Part shown: positions 18,109-53,646 of the stretch, piece after piece
Numbering within the stretch: position 1 is the first letter of the stretch
How the letters are laid out: the number at the start of each line of letters is the position of its first letter
NCBI GenBank assembly: GCA_963839475.1
Contig: CAWIVH010000001.1
Span: forward strand, 844,627-908,626
Source: an uncultured Acidobacteriota bacterium
GTDB lineage: Bacteria > Acidobacteriota > UBA6911
Direction: 5' to 3'
DNA: 64,000 bases
The notes under the pieces: generated by a model
Seen by the model: the letters and a program-made list of their open reading frames with translations, nothing else
Databases searched by the model: none
Told to the model about the DNA's origin: nothing
Made by a program: the position numbers and the translations under genes

Positions 18109-18210
18109 GAGAAAATAAAAGCGCGAAGACTTCTCTGAGACCGCCGAGTCCATCGGAAGGTACGATTATTTTTCCTTCCCGAGCTTGGTGGTCTTGGAGG
18201 CCTTTGCGGT

Positions 18211-19725
18211 TCAGAGCATCAAGCGGTCGATTTTCGAAACCAGTTCCTGGCCTTCCAGAGCGATTTGGGCGGCCTCGTTGCGGCAGGCATTGGCAAAACC
18301 GTCATCTTTCAAGCCGGGGAGGTTGATCAGCACATTGTACTGAGCGCCTTTGATCGCGGCGAATGCAAGCTGGCCGCCCACGGCAGCATCGCTGCGCGCA
18401 TTCGGGTTCCCGATCCCGGCCAGGATCTCGACGCAGCCCAGGACGGCGCGCGCGGCGCGCATGGTTTTCAACGGAACTTCGGTGGCGAAACGCGTGGCCG
18501 ATTGAATGGCCGCGCTTCGCGCCGCTTTTTCTGCCTCGCTTTCCTTGGGCAACTTGAAAGCCGCCATCACCCTGCTGTAAGCGGATGCGTCCTCCTGAAC
18601 CAGCTGCTGCAACTCGGCGCGCAACCCGCTCAGGTGACGATGCAATTCGTGGACCTGGGCCTCGACCCCTTCGAATTTCTTTTTCCCCTCGGTCAGGCCA
18701 GCCACCATCTCCCCCAAAGCTGCCGCCAGCCCGGCCGACAGCGCTGCCACGCTGCCGCCTCCAGGCACGGGCTCCGCGGAGGCAACGCTGGAGACAAACT
18801 CATCCAGCCTTTGCCCCTTGCCGAGTGCTGCGGCAAGCCGGTTCTCCAGTATCTGGCTCTCGGAAAAATGCTCCAGGCGCAGGTAGTATTCGGCCCCGGC
18901 ATTGAGCGCCTTCTGGGGAACGAGTCCGACAATTTCGCTCGAGGTCGCTGAGACTCCGAAGCGCGCTGCTTCCCGCACCACCATCTCGAACGCCCGGTGA
19001 ATCGGGGTCCCCTCGAAATGGGTGAGGTTCATGGAAACCTGGACCTGGTTCCGCTCCTTGATTTCGAATCCCAGCGCTTTTACGTAGCGCAGCCCACCGC
19101 TGGAATAGCGAACTGCTTTGGCGGCGGCCTGGGCTACTTTCAGATCGGAGGTGTCGAGATAAACATTGTAGGCGACCAGCGGAAAGCGGGCGCCCACCGC
19201 CGTTGCGCCGGCCGACGGATGGACCTCGCAGGGGCCGTAATCCGGCTTCCTGGCAGGATCCTGCCGGATGGCCTCGCGAATCCCTTCGAATTCCCCTTTG
19301 CGCACGTAGGCCAAATCGCGCCTGGCCTCCACTCGCGCGGATTGTTCGTAAAGATACACGGGAATCCGGTGGCGGACAGAAATCTCCTCCGCGACGCGGA
19401 CAGAGAGTTGAATGCATTCCTCCATCGTGATCCCCGAAATGGGGATGAATGGAATCACGTCAACGGCCCCCATCCGCGGGTGTTCGCCCTTGTGGTCTCG
19501 CAGGTCTATCAACTCTACGGCCTTGGCCACACCGGCAATCACCCCGGATGACACCGCTTCCGGTTCGCCGGCAATCGTGATCACGCAACGGTTGTGGGCG
19601 GCATCCATTTCCGAATCGAGAAGAGCCGCGCCAGGCACTCCGGTTAATGCGGCAGCAATGGCCTCCACCACTTCCTTTCTTCGGCCCTCGGAAAAATTGG
19701 GGACGCACTCGACAATCCTGTTCAC
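18211..19725 (-). CDS. ftcD: Bifunctional glutamate formimidoyltransferase / formimidoyl-THF cyclodeaminase
   Basis: The N-terminus VNRIVECVPNFSEGRRKEVVE is a formiminotransferase signature, and the C-terminal ~200 aa are cyclodeaminase-like and helical. The likely GTG start at 19725 has GGAG 5 nt upstream. It overlaps the hutI stop (GTGA). Confidence 0.75.
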   Translation of the reverse strand: MNRIVECVPNFSEGRRKEVVEAIAAALTGVPGAALLDSEMDAAHNRCVITIAGEPEAVSSGVIAGVAKAVELIDLRDHKGEHPRMGAVDVIPFIPISGITMEECIQLSVRVAEEISVRHRIPVYLYEQSARVEARRDLAYVRKGEFEGIREAIRQDPARKPDYGPCEVHPSAGATAVGARFPLVAYNVYLDTSDLKVAQAAAKAVRYSSGGLRYVKALGFEIKERNQVQVSMNLTHFEGTPIHRAFEMVVREAARFGVSATSSEIVGLVPQKALNAGAEYYLRLEHFSESQILENRLAAALGKGQRLDEFVSSVASAEPVPGGGSVAALSAGLAAALGEMVAGLTEGKKKFEGVEAQVHELHRHLSGLRAELQQLVQEDASAYSRVMAAFKLPKESEAEKAARSAAIQSATRFATEVPLKTMRAARAVLGCVEILAGIGNPNARSDAAVGGQLAFAAIKGAQYNVLINLPGLKDDGFANACRNEAAQIALEGQELVSKIDRLML

Positions 19726-44198: not shown

Positions 44199-44494
44199 CG
44201 TTTGCACTTTGCTGCTGGCCCGCTGGCGCGGTTTCGCGCGGGCATCTGCTTCGATGCCGCTCCTCGATGTGACGGGCGGATCAGCCGTGACGCCCAAAAT
44301 CGATGTCCGGCATTTGCATCCTGGCCGCTTTGCCGGAGGTGCCGCCCATGAATTAGACCGGCGTCATACCCGCGATTACCGCTAGTTTCATTCCGCGCTG
44401 GTGTCCGGACCATGCCGTCTTCGATCACCACCTCCCATAGCTTGAACATTTCGGAGCCTGTACTCGTATTCCGGATCAGGAGGTCGGAGATGCC

Positions 44495-46882
44495 ATGTCC
44501 GGCGATGAGCTTCTGCGAAACTTTTGGCTGGCAGTGAGACTTCTCCGCCAGCGTCCGGCCTTCGCGGCAACGTGCCTGGCAACTCTGATTCTGGGAATTT
44601 CCCTCAACACCATTGCTTTCGGCATCGTCAATGCGCTGTGGTTTCGGCCGCTCCCTTTTCCGGATGGCAGCCGGATGGTGGTTCTCTTCGAGCAGAATCT
44701 CCGGTCCGGCAACCGCGCCTTTGCATCGTATGCCACCTACTGCGGGTGGCGAGATCAGGCCCAAAGTTTCGTTTCCACAGCCGCAGTTCTCGAACGCTCA
44801 TGCAATGTTTTTCCGGATGCATCCATGCATGGGGTGCCGGAAGCAGCAGGCGCGGCATTGGTATCCGCGGGAGCGATCGAATTCATGGGTTTTCGGCCGA
44901 TCAAGGGTAGAAGCTTCATCCCCGGGGAGGAAAACGGCACCGTCCGGGCAGTATTGATCGGGGAACGGTACTGGAGGGAACGGTTTTCATCTGATCCGGA
45001 AATCCTCAGCCGCAGGCTGATCGTTGACGGAGAGCCGTCAGCGATCATCGGAGTTCTCCCTCGTGAATTTCAAATTCTCTATGGAGGCTATCAGGTGGTT
45101 GGGCTTCTCGATCACAAGGCCGAGAGCTCTGACCGCACGGAACGAATGCTTCAGGTCATCGCCAGACTCAAACCCGGAATCAGCCTGGATCAGGCGCGGG
45201 CCGAAATGAAGGTCATATCTGCCCGGATTTCATTGCTGTCTCCGGCGAGTAATCGGGAATGGGAAGCGAGGGTGGCTGATTACCGCAAGTTTCTTTTTGC
45301 AACGGCCATCCGGATGTACCCGCTGCTCCTGGCCGGGTCCGTGTTTGTTTTGCTCATCGTCTGTGCAAATATCTCCAACCTTTACCTGGCCCTGTCCATC
45401 GCGAGGCGCAAAGAAATCGCCGTCAGGGCGGCCCTCGGCGCCACCCGGTGGCAGATCGTCCGGCAGATGCTGGCCGAAGGTTTGGTTCTTTCTATCGGTG
45501 GAGGCCTGATTGCTTTTACACTCGTGGTGTGGGCCCGCTATCTGCTTGTTGCCGGTTACCCAGAGCTCTCGAATCTGAAGGTCGATATTCGTGTGTTTTC
45601 CTACACGATGCTGGTTTCCTTCGCCGCCGGGATGGCCTTCGGATTGACTCCTGCCCTCACGGCTTCGAAGCCCGATATCAGCGAGGTGCTGAAAAGCAGC
45701 GGCCGCAGCGGGCAGGCCCGGTCCACCCTCAGATTACGCCGGCTGCTGGTTGCATCCGAACTGGCTCTTTCGCTCATTCTATTGACAGCCACAGGCCTCC
45801 TGGTCCGGACGGCAATTAAAATGCGTGTGGCGGAACCGGGATTCAAACCCGCCCGCCTCTTGACTGCGCATCTGACCCTTCGAGGGAATCGATACTCCAG
45901 CGCTGCCGACAAGGCACGCTTCACTCGATACCTGCAAGAGCAGGTTGCCGGCATGCCCGGCATCGAAGGGGCGACACTCATGGGACGCCTGCCTTTGCTG
46001 GGCGGCGATCCGACATCGCGGCTGGAAGTTTCTGATGCTGACGGATGGTCCTGCCAGGTTATCGTGCGGCCCGTGGACTCGGAGTTTCACGGGGTATTGT
46101 CCAACCGCATGTTGGCCGGACGTAGATTCCTTCCTGCGGATGCTGAAGATTCGGAGCCGACAGCTATCCTTAATGAAAAGCTCGCGGGGAGCATATCACC
46201 TGGGAATCCGGCGGGCGCACTCGATCACCGCATCCGCATCGATGACGGGTCCTGGCGGAGAGTCGTAGGCATATCCGCCGATGTCCGTCAGTTGCTGACT
46301 CAGCCGGCCGGTGCTGAAGTGCTGGTTCCGCTTGCTCAACAGCCTTCGTCGAATATCTGGATAGCCGTCCTGGCGCGCGGCGACCCGGATTCCATCGCCA
46401 ATTCGCTGCGGAAAAAAGTAGCGGGCATGGATCCGGCACTTCCGGTCGGCGCGCTGCAGACAATGTCGGACATTGTCGACGGCTATTTTCCTCGAGTCAT
46501 GATGGCCGGATTAGCCTGTTTTTCGATCGTTGCGCTGAGTATCGCGGCGCTTGGCCTCTACGGGGTGGTGGCTTCGACGGTTCTGGAGCGCACGCAAGAA
46601 ATCGGTGTCCGGATGGCACTTGGCGCAAACCGGAGGACCATTCTGCAAAATATAATCAGCGATGGAATCCGACTGGCAGCCTGGGGTGCTGTCTCAGGGC
46701 TTCTTGGGGCATTCGCCCTCGGCCGGGTAATGGCGGGATTTCTTTTTGACGTCAGTCCGGCTGACCCGGTCGTGTTCACCGTCATTCCAGTCCTCCTCAT
46801 GCTCGTGGTGGTGTGCGCGGCCTACGTCCCGTCCCGTCGCGCTTCGCGTCTCGATCCTGTGGTTGCGCTGCGGGAGGAATAG
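44495..46882 (+). CDS. ADOP-family duplicated MacB-like ABC permease
   Basis: At 795 aa it has two FtsX-type permease modules, each preceded by a MacB periplasmic core domain. The N-terminus is LAVRLLRQRPAFAATCLATLILGIS. Confidence 0.8.
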   Translation: MSGDELLRNFWLAVRLLRQRPAFAATCLATLILGISLNTIAFGIVNALWFRPLPFPDGSRMVVLFEQNLRSGNRAFASYATYCGWRDQAQSFVSTAAVLERSCNVFPDASMHGVPEAAGAALVSAGAIEFMGFRPIKGRSFIPGEENGTVRAVLIGERYWRERFSSDPEILSRRLIVDGEPSAIIGVLPREFQILYGGYQVVGLLDHKAESSDRTERMLQVIARLKPGISLDQARAEMKVISARISLLSPASNREWEARVADYRKFLFATAIRMYPLLLAGSVFVLLIVCANISNLYLALSIARRKEIAVRAALGATRWQIVRQMLAEGLVLSIGGGLIAFTLVVWARYLLVAGYPELSNLKVDIRVFSYTMLVSFAAGMAFGLTPALTASKPDISEVLKSSGRSGQARSTLRLRRLLVASELALSLILLTATGLLVRTAIKMRVAEPGFKPARLLTAHLTLRGNRYSSAADKARFTRYLQEQVAGMPGIEGATLMGRLPLLGGDPTSRLEVSDADGWSCQVIVRPVDSEFHGVLSNRMLAGRRFLPADAEDSEPTAILNEKLAGSISPGNPAGALDHRIRIDDGSWRRVVGISADVRQLLTQPAGAEVLVPLAQQPSSNIWIAVLARGDPDSIANSLRKKVAGMDPALPVGALQTMSDIVDGYFPRVMMAGLACFSIVALSIAALGLYGVVASTVLERTQEIGVRMALGANRRTILQNIISDGIRLAAWGAVSGLLGAFALGRVMAGFLFDVSPADPVVFTVIPVLLMLVVVCAAYVPSRRASRLDPVVALREE

Positions 46883-46953
46883 CACCTGGAATCGCCCGGC
46901 GATTCGCAGCCCCCTATTAGACGGACGGCTGCCCATGTCGTCGAGGTTTCTTC

Positions 46954-46980
46954 TTGACTTCAGTGATTACATATGTAATC
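46954..46980 (+). promoter_or_regulatory. BlaI/MecI-type operator (perfect 16-bp palindrome GATTACATATGTAATC) overlapping a TTGACT -35 element
   Basis: The palindrome at 46965-46980 matches the TTACA-N-TGTAA dyad of BlaI/MecI boxes. TTGACT lies at 46954-46959, and the site is 36 bp upstream of the blaI ATG. Confidence 0.65.
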
Positions 46981-47015
46981 TAAATGAAAACGTATGTGAT
47001 CGAGGAAAAGCCGTC

Positions 47016-47384
47016 ATGCCTGCCATACCCAAGATAGCCGATTCCGAATGGAAGGTCATGAAAGTGCTCTGGGCGCGGTCCGAACCCATGCCCGCGTACG
47101 ACATCATTCAGGAACTCGCCGCCGCTGAACGATGGCAGCCGAAAACGATCAAAACCCTGCTCGGCCGGCTGGTGAAGAAAGGCGCGTTGAGTTTCCGGAG
47201 GTACAAGAACCTCTACCTGTATTTCCCAAAGGTCAGTGAATCCGAATGTCTCAAAGCGGAAGGCGAGTCCTTTTTGCAAAGGTGCTTCAACGGATCGCTC
47301 CAGCCAATGCTGGCACACTTTGTGGAACACCGCCGACTTACACCAAAGGAGATCCAGGAGCTGAAACGGATTTTGGAATCCTAG
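47016..47384 (+). CDS. BlaI/MecI/CopY-family transcriptional repressor
   Basis: MPAIPKIADSEWKVMKVLWARSEPMPAYDIIQELAAAERWQPKTIKTLLGRLVKKGAL is a winged-helix penicillinase-repressor fold, and a C-terminal dimerisation helix is present. Confidence 0.85.
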   Translation: MPAIPKIADSEWKVMKVLWARSEPMPAYDIIQELAAAERWQPKTIKTLLGRLVKKGALSFRRYKNLYLYFPKVSESECLKAEGESFLQRCFNGSLQPMLAHFVEHRRLTPKEIQELKRILES

Positions 47385-47424
47385 CCCGAGTTTACCGCCC
47401 GAATGCGGCAGAACTCCGCTTTGG

Positions 47425-47667
47425 ATGTCGGCCAAGGCTAAGAGTGAAGAAGCCGGAAAGTATCTCCGCGATCGCTTGAACTTCCCGGTCCTGTTCGCTG
47501 CCGATGGTTCCTACCGGATTGAGGATGTTCCGGCGGGAACCTATTGGCTCAGGCTTCCTATTCCTGGATTACCCCATAACACCTTTTTTCGTGAAGTTAC
47601 AGTTCCCGAGATTTCCAGCGGCTGGCACGACACTCCCCTCGATGTGGGGACCATAACCATCCGGTGA
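47425..47667 (+). pseudogene. Remnant ORF encoding only the C-terminal half of a carboxypeptidase-regulatory-like domain (possible relic of the BlaR1-like partner)
   Basis: DGSYRIEDVPAGTYWLRL...FREVTVPE resembles strands 4-7 of CarbopepD_reg domains. There is no upstream in-frame continuation because of a stop at 47422. Confidence 0.3.
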
Positions 47668-47822
47668 GCGCTTCTTGTCGCATCACTTAAACGAAAAGGG
47701 GAAATTCAGTAGTTCACCCCATCCCAAGGCTCGCTTAAGCTCATGGATGAATTGTTCCGTGCTGCGGTTCCGGCCCGGGGGAAACACTCCATAATCACAA
47801 AAAGTCAGACAAGCTGTTGGCT

Positions 47823-48818
47823 TCAATGGGCCGGGCGAATCAGCCGCCGCGCCCAGCGCAGCGCTGAAATCATACTCTCGGGGCGCGCCACGCCCTTGCC
47901 CGCAATGTCGAAGGCCGTGCCATGATCGACCGAGGTTCGGACGAAGGGCAGGCCCAGTGTCACGTTGACCGCTTCTCCGAATCCGATCAATTTGATAGGG
48001 CTGAGACCCTGATCATGGAGCAGGGCCAGCACTACGTCGAATTCGCCTGACGCCGCCCTGTAGAAAAGCGTATCGGCCGGCAGTGGCCCGTGGATCTCAA
48101 TCCCGGGATTTTCCTTCCGAAACCGGCGAAGCGCCGGCTCGATCACTTCCCGCTCCTCCGTGCCCATGATACCGTTTTCGCCGGCATGCGGATTCAATGC
48201 GGCTACCGCTACCCTGCGGCAAGGCAGATTGAGGCGGGGAAATTCACGCAGGATAATTCGCAGCTTGTCCTGAATCAGCTCGGCGGTAATGAGGTCGATG
48301 GCACTGCGCAGCGACAGATGGATTGTTGCCAGAACCACCTTCAGTTTTTCGGTCAGGAAGGCCATCGCAACATCATGGACACCGGCAAGATACGCCAGGA
48401 ATTCCGTGTGGCCTGGAAAGTCGTATCCTGCCAAATGAAGATATTTCTTGTTGAGCGGAGCGGTGACGATGGCGTCCAGAGCTCCCTGCAAACATGCCGC
48501 AGCGCATAGCTCAATATTTTTCGCCGCGGCTTCACCGCTGGCGGCCGAACCGGATCCGGGTTGGATTTCGCCGCATCGCGCGGGAATGTGAACGAAGCCG
48601 CGTGCAGGGAGCTCGATGTCAGGCAGCAACTCGGTCGCTGCAACACGATCATAATCGAAGCTGATCCCCAGCTTCCCAGCCTGCGCCCGCAAAATCTGCT
48701 CATCACCAAAGAGGGTTATTATGCAGTCCCCGAACAGGCGCGGATCACGCAAGGCGCGCAGCGATATTTCCGGGCCTATGCCGGCCGGATCGCCGGTGGT
48801 GACTCCAATCCTGAGCAT
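47823..48818 (-). CDS. pdxA: 4-hydroxythreonine-4-phosphate dehydrogenase
   Basis: MLRIGVTTGDPAGIGPEISLRAL...GHTEFLA...DHGTAFDIAGKG are PdxA signatures. Confidence 0.9.
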   Translation of the reverse strand: MLRIGVTTGDPAGIGPEISLRALRDPRLFGDCIITLFGDEQILRAQAGKLGISFDYDRVAATELLPDIELPARGFVHIPARCGEIQPGSGSAASGEAAAKNIELCAAACLQGALDAIVTAPLNKKYLHLAGYDFPGHTEFLAYLAGVHDVAMAFLTEKLKVVLATIHLSLRSAIDLITAELIQDKLRIILREFPRLNLPCRRVAVAALNPHAGENGIMGTEEREVIEPALRRFRKENPGIEIHGPLPADTLFYRAASGEFDVVLALLHDQGLSPIKLIGFGEAVNVTLGLPFVRTSVDHGTAFDIAGKGVARPESMISALRWARRLIRPAH

Positions 48819-48919: not shown

Positions 48920-49246
48920 CTACTCGAGGTCAACCTCGTCCGGCTCCTGATCTTCGTTCTGCTTGTACATGTACTTGATGAAATGCTTCAAGATCAGAAG
49001 GTTGGGACCGTCCTGCCGGTGGACTTTGATGCAGTTCTTGTCATACCATTCCAGTACTCCGCGAATCTCCTCATCGTCCACCAGTTTGACCACCATTGGC
49101 GTTTTGGCGGCCATTTGTTTTATGTAATAGTAGTTTTCCGCGTTTGTGACGTCGGGCGGCACCCGTTTACGCGGAGCCGCTCCATATCTCGGCATCTGAT
49201 CCTTGATATCCGAAAGGCTTGGTCGGATCAGTTTACGATTAACCAT
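48920..49246 (-). CDS. Hfq-like Sm-fold RNA-binding protein (N-terminally extended)
   Basis: TPMVVKLVDDEEIRGVLEWYDKNCIKV parallels the Hfq Sm1 motif ([27 protein letters not shown]), and LLILKHFIKYMY parallels the Sm2 motif (MVYKHAIS). A GGGAGGGAG SD lies 6 nt upstream of the ATG. Confidence 0.45.
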   Translation of the reverse strand: MVNRKLIRPSLSDIKDQMPRYGAAPRKRVPPDVTNAENYYYIKQMAAKTPMVVKLVDDEEIRGVLEWYDKNCIKVHRQDGPNLLILKHFIKYMYKQNEDQEPDEVDLE

Positions 49247-52941: not shown

Positions 52942-53646
52942 TCAGTCAATTCGGATCGGCCCCCCTGACTGCGGCGGCACGGGTGGTGGAACAATGGGCG
53001 GCACGGGTGGCGGAACCATTTGTTGATCTCCAAAAATCATATAGAAGGCCACCACGGAAGCGCAAAACGATACCGGGATGGACAGGACCAGTCCCACCAG
53101 GCATGCCAGCGCCCCAAGAATGTTGATGCCGATCATGACCAGAGCAAAAATAATCATCGTCGGCAGATTCTCGGTGACCGCCCGACGGCTGGTTTCGAGA
53201 GCTTGCCAGAAATCCAATTTATAGGTGACCACGACGAAGCTGGCGAACATGTAGCCCAATGCGAGGTAAAGCCCAGGGATGATGCAGAGTAGCGTCCCGA
53301 CAAACATTAAAATGCCGCCAACCAATCCCACAAGGAAGAGAGGCCCCGTGTATTGGAATCCCTCGAAGAAGTCCTGAAAAACGGCGGGCTCATTGCGGAT
53401 CCTTTTCCGAATGTAGGTAAAATACCCTGCCGACATTGCCGGACTTATGACCCAGCTGACGATCCAGCCCAGGATCGGGATGGCCGCCAGGCCAAGGGAA
53501 ATGACCAGGACAAGAAGCGTATAGCCGATAAATGGACCCAGGTTTTGCATCGCCAGATCCCATCCGCGTTGCACGCATTCGCCGACGGGAATATCCACCT
53601 TCCGGAACGAAATCTCTCTTTCGGGTATGCCTTGAGTAGCGTACAT
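52942..53646 (-). CDS. Hypothetical polytopic membrane protein with Pro-rich C-terminal tail
   Basis: It has 5-6 hydrophobic helices and the C-terminal PPPVPPIVPPPVPPQSGGP. The start is chosen at MYATQGIPE. Confidence 0.5.
   Translation of the reverse strand: MYATQGIPEREISFRKVDIPVGECVQRGWDLAMQNLGPFIGYTLLVLVISLGLAAIPILGWIVSWVISPAMSAGYFTYIRKRIRNEPAVFQDFFEGFQYTGPLFLVGLVGGILMFVGTLLCIIPGLYLALGYMFASFVVVTYKLDFWQALETSRRAVTENLPTMIIFALVMIGINILGALACLVGLVLSIPVSFCASVVAFYMIFGDQQMVPPPVPPIVPPPVPPQSGGPIRID

Follow-up and report, generated by a model that had tools for sequence, protein, structure and literature searches.

The closest described systems to the locus reported here are BlaI/BlaR1 and MecI/MecR1 of Staphylococcus aureus and Bacillus licheniformis, in which a repressor gene is accompanied by the gene of an M56 sensor-protease. 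The staphylococcal gene order is blaR1 followed by blaI. The operator core of the BlaI family is TACANNTGTA, and the OP1blaP operator of B. licheniformis carries the 12-nt core TTACATATGTAA (PMC1935004). For the cop operators, the sites of the CopY repressor, the refined 16-nt consensus is RNYKACANNTGTMRNY (PMC7253601). The cleavage of S. aureus BlaI by BlaR1 takes place at Asn101-Phe102 (PMC9834060). Our search of the literature on orphan BlaI or M56 proteins in Acidobacteria returned nothing specific.

We analysed a blaI gene that stands without a sensor gene in a 64-kb stretch of DNA (the whole of this stretch is hereafter called the window), and its features are collected in Table 1. The reading that we prefer, with a probability of roughly 0.85, is that a two-gene BlaI/M56 cassette has lost its sensor by deletion, and that an intact promoter, operator and blaI together with a tail of about 70 codons are what remains of it.

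Table 1. Features of the blaI locus and its neighbours, in window coordinates
Feature	Position	Strand	Description and basis
ADOP-type MacB_PCD/FtsX permease gene	44495-46882	+	Pfam; slot synteny with L072
Terminator-like hairpin with T-rich tail	46924-46942	+	consensus scan, pattern match only
-35-like hexamer TTGACT of the blaI promoter	46954-46959	+	read from the sequence
Predicted blaI operator	46965-46980		perfect 16-bp palindrome GATTACATATGTAATC with TACA-NN-TGTA core; unique in the window, kept in relatives
Lone extra half-site-like element in the 5' leader	46993-47001	+	TATGTGATC; read from the sequence
blaI	47016-47384	+	intact 122-aa winged-helix repressor of the BlaI/MecI family; Pfam and PDB matches
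Putative deletion scar (junction zone)	47385-47457	+	L068 alignment and identity profile; right breakpoint within this interval
80-aa ORF, relic of the 3' end of an M56-CarboxypepD_reg gene	47425-47667	+	tblastn and blastp against partners
pdxA	47823-48818	-	E = 1.6e-97; converges on blaI and the relic

The repressor gene and its operator

The product of blaI matches the Pfam family Penicillinase_R (PF03965), which is marked by an N-terminal winged helix and C-terminal dimerisation helices, with a bit score of 114.6 (cutoff 22.6; E = 4.1e-33) and along nearly the whole profile (positions 1-114 of 115), and the crystal structures of MecI (E = 3e-20) and BlaI (E = 5e-16) in the PDB align with it from end to end, so that the BlaI-type repressor recognised in an earlier note on this DNA is confirmed. 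At E <= 0.001 the protein has 429 homologues. All 30 residues that are invariant in its subfamily are kept, including His101-Phe102, which aligns with the N101-F102 cleavage site in the dimerisation domain of MecI and BlaI and is invariant across 18 subfamily members. At this putative cleavage site the P1' Phe is thus retained, and P1 is His instead of Asn. CopY was considered as another identity for the protein and is ruled out: despite an operator that fits the cop consensus, the CxC metal-binding motif is absent from the 122-aa sequence, the C-terminal end of which reads ...KEIQELKRILES. The ORF list and the Pfam annotation of the window contain no cop genes (copA/copZ) near blaI.

The predicted operator ends 35 nt before the ATG of blaI. 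Within the 64-kb window GATTACATATGTAATC has a single match, even if up to three mismatches are allowed (0.03 expected by chance), and the family core TACANNTGTA also occurs once, at this same palindrome (0.07 expected). The identical 16-mer is found about 52 nt before blaI in L001 and L002/L040 (BlaI protein identity to the window 78% for L001/L002), in L068 and in L070 (74%), and a copy with one mismatch is present at the same distance in L003, an Acidobacteriota MAG (72%). Because an exact or one-mismatch palindrome recurs at this position in L001/L002, L003, L068 and L070, we regard the site as more than chance: by these comparisons it is a genuine predicted operator, kept in both sequence and position in four independent relatives. 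It shares its 12-nt core with OP1blaP, and the palindrome also fits RNYKACANNTGTMRNY. The earlier note had read it as a BlaI/MecI dyad, which agrees with its uniqueness in the window and its conservation upstream of blaI in the relatives. The same note had it overlapping the TTGACT hexamer, which is not the case, as the hexamer is followed first by a gap of 5 nt and only then by the palindrome.

The counterparts of this hexamer are TTGACA in L001/L002, TTGA.. in L068 and TTGCGT in L003, each of them likewise 5 nt before the palindrome. In the aligned promoters, TTTCxxTTGAC(A/T) followed by 5 nt and the palindrome is kept amid otherwise diverged DNA, and this module of -35 element, 5-nt gap and palindrome lies about 52 nt 5' of blaI in all close relatives examined. 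The palindrome probably occupies the spacer of the promoter and covers a candidate -10 element, TAATCT (46976-46981, with a 16-nt spacer), which is weak (3/6 positions); a sigma-70 promoter scan recovered no complete promoter under the criteria of the scan. The half-site-like element in the leader is kept in L068 and is weaker in L001 and L003. An Rfam scan of 46800-47900 gave no match.

It was also suggested in the earlier note that the ADOP permease gene directly upstream may be the target of BlaI, a suggestion that the position of the operator makes very improbable. The two genes are adjacent and in the same orientation, and the ADOP of L073 has a PadR regulator beside it that the window ADOP does not have; these points are all that favours such control. 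However, the operator lies downstream of ADOP, beyond both its stop codon and the terminator-like hairpin that separates it from the blaI promoter (the promoter alignment shows a similar hairpin at the corresponding place in L001). With two to three mismatches allowed, no operator-like site was seen in 44199-44494 or elsewhere in the window. Moreover, the relatives show no linkage of the two genes (ADOP adjoins blaI in 0/6), and the one nearby ADOP, that of L073, is 29% identical, encoded on the opposite strand and provided with its own PadR.

The M56 partner and the 80-aa open reading frame

Among the relatives with a BlaI identity of at least 68%, all six carry a Peptidase_M56 gene directly after blaI, and in the close relatives with readable context this gene starts between -4 and +14 nt from the blaI stop, i.e. 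the repressor gene adjoins or overlaps the protease gene. In a survey of 53 fetched blaI loci for which 1.5 kb or more of downstream sequence was available, the M56 domain is encoded directly downstream of blaI in 48, upstream in three, and in two none is present in the available sequence. By contrast with the close relatives, tblastn detects no M56 peptidase domain anywhere in the 64-kb window, and the partner that the earlier note expected after blaI is therefore indeed absent.

The complete partners measure 754-1111 aa and contain CarboxypepD_reg repeats (1111 aa in L001/L073, 1098 aa in L003, 1092 aa in L069 and 754 aa in the P0012 contig), the M56 genes of L070 and L068 being cut by the contig end. 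Partners of the relatives match PF05569 with E-values of 3e-62 and 4e-57 and possess HExxH. In L001 and L003, Pfam identifies M56 together with four CarboxypepD_reg repeats, and neither a transpeptidase nor a PBP domain; hence the lost ancestral partner was most likely BlaR1-like in its protease domain alone. In L073 a gene for a TonB_C protein lies just downstream of the blaI-M56 pair, and it has no counterpart in the window.

Where the partner would be expected, the window has the 80-aa ORF, which the earlier note had likened to the C-terminal half of a carboxypeptidase-regulatory-like domain and taken for a relic. Searched against the whole window with tblastn, the 1111-aa partner of L001 has a sole match, residues 1043-1111 at 47458-47664 (46% identity, E = 6e-12). 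The reading frame of the ORF is open from 47365, and homology is supported for 47434/47458-47664. When the extended frame was used in blastp, E-values of 1e-16 for L001 (last 77 residues) and 3e-17 for L003 (last 62 residues, 56%) were obtained. Only the final 62-77 residues of the partners take part in these alignments, at 43-56% identity, and the relic and the partners share both the C-terminal end ...LGTITIR and the position of the stop. The CarboxypepD_reg profile (PF13620) matches the ORF with 19 bits, below its threshold of 32.3, and at profile positions 35-69 of 82 only, which agrees with the half domain described earlier. It is thus well supported by the alignments that the ORF represents the last 62-77 codons or so, with the native stop, of a Peptidase_M56-CarboxypepD_reg gene for a protein of about 1,100 aa. 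Being collinear with the extreme C-terminus of the partners, it is a relic as proposed, namely a fragment of the last CarboxypepD_reg repeat of the lost partner.

With its ATG and its 80 open codons, the ORF could also be taken for a genuine small gene standing on its own, a reading to which we assign next to no probability. No standalone homologue, which the earlier note would have counted against a relic, was found among 5.8 billion proteins; the matches of the ORF are confined to the C-termini of far longer proteins, the domain to which it belongs is missing its first strands, and no Shine-Dalgarno-like sequence precedes its ATG. As a product of the truncated partner gene, the relic is without the protease domain, the membrane segments and the first beta-sandwich strands of its CarboxypepD_reg domain, and for this reason it is very unlikely that the tail is functional.

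The relic shows few signs of age. Over its last 62 residues it is 48-57% identical to the intact partners, as compared with 46% between L001 and L003, and it retains 21 of the 30 columns that are invariant in three intact partners. Its changes are concentrated in the conserved PEMPGGRSD motif, which here reads PEISSGWHD. Neither a frameshift nor an internal stop was found in it. Since the relic is uninterrupted and as similar to the partners as these are to one another, the deletion probably occurred recently.

Breakpoints, genomic setting and origin of the locus

The left breakpoint can be placed by comparison with L068, a 1,384-bp contig from JGI metagenome 3300001213, which is a combined metagenome assembly. 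From codon 5 to the stop, the blaI genes of L068 and the window are identical at 354/357 nt (99.2%), and each of the three remaining positions is a synonymous difference. The similarity breaks off precisely behind the blaI TAG at 47384, and in L068 an ORF (MSAPLEWLNSAFMWMVRATW...) that passes the Pfam threshold for M56 starts 11 nt after the blaI stop; the start of the deletion is therefore placed at 47385. The frame after blaI reads PSLPPEC... in the window, as against MIAPPEW... in the relatives, a suggestive resemblance, and a search of 47385-47454 for surviving 5' codons of the M56 gene was not significant (local DNA alignment scores compared with those of random segments of the window, p = 0.47 for L001, 0.02 for L068 and 0.19 for L070). 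If the ancestor resembled the partners of about 1,100 aa, some 1,000-1,050 codons (about 3 kb) would have been lost. The deletion of the sensor partner put forward in the earlier note is in good agreement with these data, as the relic is collinear with the C-terminus of M56 partners and the near-identical blaI of L068 is still followed by an M56 start. The right breakpoint can be narrowed only to the stretch before about 47457, and a simple deletion is deduced from non-syntenic relatives, as no closely related genome with an intact cassette in the pepA...pdxA context was found.

The flanks of the locus have their counterpart in the syntenic relative L072, with the order epimerase-epimerase-SmpB-PepA, a 214-aa hypothetical protein, and PdxA-Hfq-TPR (identity to the window proteins: Hfq-like 94%, SmpB 79%, PdxA 70% and PepA 66%). 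In the window, the pepA-pdxA slot is occupied by ADOP, blaI and the relic, with pdxA next on the opposite strand as the earlier note had stated. Because L072 shares the flanks but holds the 214-aa hypothetical in the slot, the ADOP-blaI-relic segment is lineage-specific accessory DNA amid housekeeping genes. The nearest PdxA is 78% identical, on a contig that ends at pdxA. Around the blaI locus neither an IS element nor an integrase was detected, and the GC content of the segment shows no anomaly. The only flanking inverted repeat, 46889-46911/47819-47841 (74% complementary), overlaps the coding end of pdxA and is probably due to chance.

The similarity to L068 is a mosaic. It begins at 46947; identity is 77% over the promoter, 58% over codons 1-4 and 99% over the rest of the coding sequence, with no similarity outside, and the upstream neighbour of blaI is an alpha/beta hydrolase in L068 as opposed to ADOP in the window. 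Recombination may thus have shaped the locus in addition to a simple deletion or instead of it. The locus could then never have been intact in this genome, either because it arrived already truncated or because an L068-like donor overwrote blaI, by recombination or gene conversion, after an older deletion. The differing flanks, the lineage-specific filling of the pepA-pdxA slot and the gap between pdxA relatives of at most 78% identity and a 99% DNA match for blaI would all suit such a history, as does the mosaic itself. We nevertheless judge it unlikely, as blaI and the relic keep their original order and orientation, native stop codon included, for which a single internal deletion is the simplest explanation, and as IS elements, integrase genes, convincing terminal repeats and a compositional anomaly are all lacking at the locus. 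L068 could, besides, be chimeric, being a 1.4-kb contig of a combined assembly. The mosaic identity and the distant PdxA do hint that the blaI module was recently recombined or exchanged.

The missing M56 gene could in principle reflect a collapsed or mis-joined contig, the real operon being intact, since repeats may mislead assembly programs and the partner has several CarboxypepD_reg repeats that resemble one another. The left breakpoint, however, is at the blaI stop codon and not within a repeat, the contig of the window spans 1.27 Mb, and no repeat of the junction sequence 47385-47457 occurs in the region; an assembly artefact is accordingly a slim prospect, and a deletion in the genome itself remains the preferred reading.

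By analogy with the described systems and from the intact relatives, the history of the locus may be pictured as follows. The ancestor would have had the promoter and operator followed by blaI and by the gene for a membrane protein of about 1,100 aa, equipped with an N-terminal Peptidase_M56 zinc protease and four or more CarboxypepD_reg beta-sandwich repeats outside the cytoplasm, and lacking a penicillin-binding sensor. A BlaI dimer would bind the palindrome in the spacer and -10 region of its own promoter and keep the operon off, and the activated M56 protease would cut BlaI at the H101-F102 bond, leading to induction. A single deletion of about 3 kb then probably ran from the base after the blaI stop to approximately codon 1020-1040 of the M56 gene, and the remaining out-of-context tail of about 70 codons, which happens to begin with an ATG, would be the 80-aa ORF. 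As the protease gene is gone, BlaI would now be an autorepressor without an inducer encoded in cis. DNA binding, autorepression, the cleavage site and the loss of inducibility are all ascribed to the window BlaI on the strength of the analogy with its described homologues.

On these premises, BlaI would now be either a locked autorepressor heading to decay or a protein on which a paralogous M56 protease acts in trans. Cross-talk of a comparable kind exists in staphylococci between BlaR1 and MecI. The second possibility, in which the orphan BlaI is still inducible through cleavage by the M56 protein of a paralogous cassette and may control operators outside the window, is compatible with the deletion and concerns the present-day function only. 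It would account for a blaI that is fully intact, with all its subfamily-invariant residues kept (H101-F102 among them) and with only synonymous differences from L068 after codon 4 (3/3), and for an intact operator and -35 element; BlaI/M56 pairs are also abundant in this bacterial group. Yet no M56 gene and no second operator exist within the 64 kb, and an intact blaI would be expected equally after a recent deletion, as the undecayed relic suggests, and we therefore consider cleavage in trans doubtful, if the most plausible of the alternatives discussed here. Somewhat more speculative is the idea that the orphan BlaI is a maintained node in trans that integrates signals from CarboxypepD_reg-type envelope sensors in Acidobacteriota, its 99% copy in L068 resulting from a recent exchange between lineages. 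If this were true, BlaI would be cleaved by the M56 proteases of paralogous cassettes and would possibly repress other promoters that bear the operator.

Comparison with known systems

Under the preferred reading of a lost sensor gene, the locus is a case of ordinary pseudogenisation, in an Acidobacteria-like genome, of a known type of accessory regulatory cassette, here one from an uncharacterised non-beta-lactam subfamily in which M56 is fused to CarboxypepD_reg repeats. Its significance is modest: it offers a clean and datable example of the decay of a two-component-like BlaI/M56 cassette, with the sensor lost first and the repressor and operator still intact. It also points to a widespread uncharacterised subfamily that combines a BlaR1-type protease bearing CarboxypepD_reg repeats with the operator core of OP1 of blaP. 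Annotations should mark the 80-aa ORF as a fragment of a pseudogene, and blaI of the window provides no evidence for beta-lactam sensing or for regulation of the neighbouring permease.

The direct relatives of the window cassette are the uncharacterised pairs of BlaI and M56-CarboxypepD_reg proteins in Acidobacteriota and Verrucomicrobiota (for example L001/L073, L003 and L069), with a BlaI identity of 72-78%. They possess an identical or near-identical operator-promoter layout and a partner whose C-terminus is homologous to the relic, but their loci are intact. CopY/CopR belong to the same Pfam family, and the window palindrome fits their operator consensus (PMC7253601); they are, however, characterised by the CxC motif and by linkage to copA/copZ, whereas the window BlaI has no CxC and its relatives are paired with M56.

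With BlaI/BlaR1 and MecI/MecR1 of S. aureus and B. licheniformis, the window shares the repressor family PF03965 and its fold, as well as an operator with the core TACA-NN-TGTA in the promoter of the repressor itself, the 12-nt core being the same as in OP1blaP. The Phe at P1' of the S. aureus BlaI cleavage site (PMC9834060) has its counterpart at the aligned position of the window BlaI, where the residue aligned with P1 is His and not Asn. The M56 gene is present in the bla and mec systems and appears to have been deleted in the window. Furthermore, BlaR1 and MecR1 carry a penicillin-binding sensor, in place of which the intact relatives of the window BlaI have at least four CarboxypepD_reg repeats, and a beta-lactam signal is therefore not expected. 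No beta-lactamase or PBP2a target gene of the kind found in the bla and mec systems is present near the window blaI, and the staphylococcal order of blaR1 before blaI is reversed in the relatives of the window, where blaI precedes the M56 gene.

A partial loss of the sensor gene has a natural parallel in delta-mecR1 of the class B and class C mec complexes of SCCmec, in which the gene of the M56 sensor-protease is partially deleted and a fragment of it is left. These truncations of mecR1 came about via IS1272 or IS431; they usually remove mecI as well, and mecA is derepressed. The window has the partial loss of an M56 sensor-protease gene in common with SCCmec, but it differs in keeping the repressor and in having no IS element, and the expected outcome would be permanent repression instead of derepression.

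The blaI segment and its metagenomic counterpart

Positions 46947-47384 of the window could be aligned with positions 681-1119 of L068, a metagenome contig carrying blaI and the start of an intact M56 gene, and the identity along this alignment forms a mosaic. From codon 5 of blaI to its stop the two sequences are 99.2% identical, while codons 1-4 share 58% and the promoter and leader ~77%; outside the aligned window segment the similarity is nil on both sides. The gene upstream of blaI in L068 encodes an alpha/beta hydrolase, unlike that in the window, and the closest relatives of the window pdxA, a housekeeping gene, reach at most 78% identity. Taken together, the mosaic identity, the different upstream gene and the pdxA values suggest that the blaI module was recently recombined or exchanged, or else that the L068 contig is chimeric.

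A single half-site-like element, TATGTGATC, lies in the interval that separates the operator palindrome from the start of blaI. Compared with the palindrome's right half it has 1 base changed; L068 also keeps the element, which may be either an auxiliary BlaI contact or unrelated. An inverted repeat flanks blaI and the relic ORF downstream of it; because its right arm overlaps pdxA at the 3' end of the coding region, this repeat is probably due to chance.

Features located in the window around blaI and pdxA
Feature	Position	Strand	Details
Half-site-like element	46993-47001		TATGTGATC
Imperfect 23-nt inverted repeat	46889-46911 / 47819-47841		74% complementary; 9-nt exact core TCGCCCGGC
Hfq_1-type (Hfq-related) protein	48920-49246	-	108 aa

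Content of the pepA-pdxA slot

The content of the pepA-pdxA slot varies (window 44199-47822 versus 2187-2976 in the syntenic relative L072): in the window it is filled by the ADOP permease gene, blaI and the relic, and in L072 by a gene for a 214-aa hypothetical protein, whose nearest window homologue lies at 53020-53601 (32% identity). In 44199-46882, which takes in the window ADOP gene and the stretch before it, no PadR-family regulator gene occurs upstream of ADOP, and tblastn found none in the whole window; the ADOP gene of L073 (15488-18187) has a PadR gene (18199-18531) directly before its start.

The Hfq_1-type protein and its orthologue in L072 share 94% identity, compared with 61% for TPR, 66% for PepA, 70% for PdxA and 79% for SmpB among its neighbours, and this small protein is therefore unusually conserved.

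Partners of blaI in other loci

In the nearest intact relative, the M56-CarboxypepD_reg gene is followed on the same strand by a gene for a TonB_C-domain protein (L073 12948-13868, equal to L001 9807-10727), which may represent a third component of intact blaI-M56 cassettes; nothing comparable to this gene is present in the window.

In three Bacillota loci (L008, L035 and L038), an M56 domain is located ~2.3-2.5 kb upstream of the matched blaI on the same strand. This arrangement suggests that the cassettes stand in tandem, or that a complete pair is followed by a second blaI lacking a partner, and hence that the window is not the sole case of a blaI without its partner.
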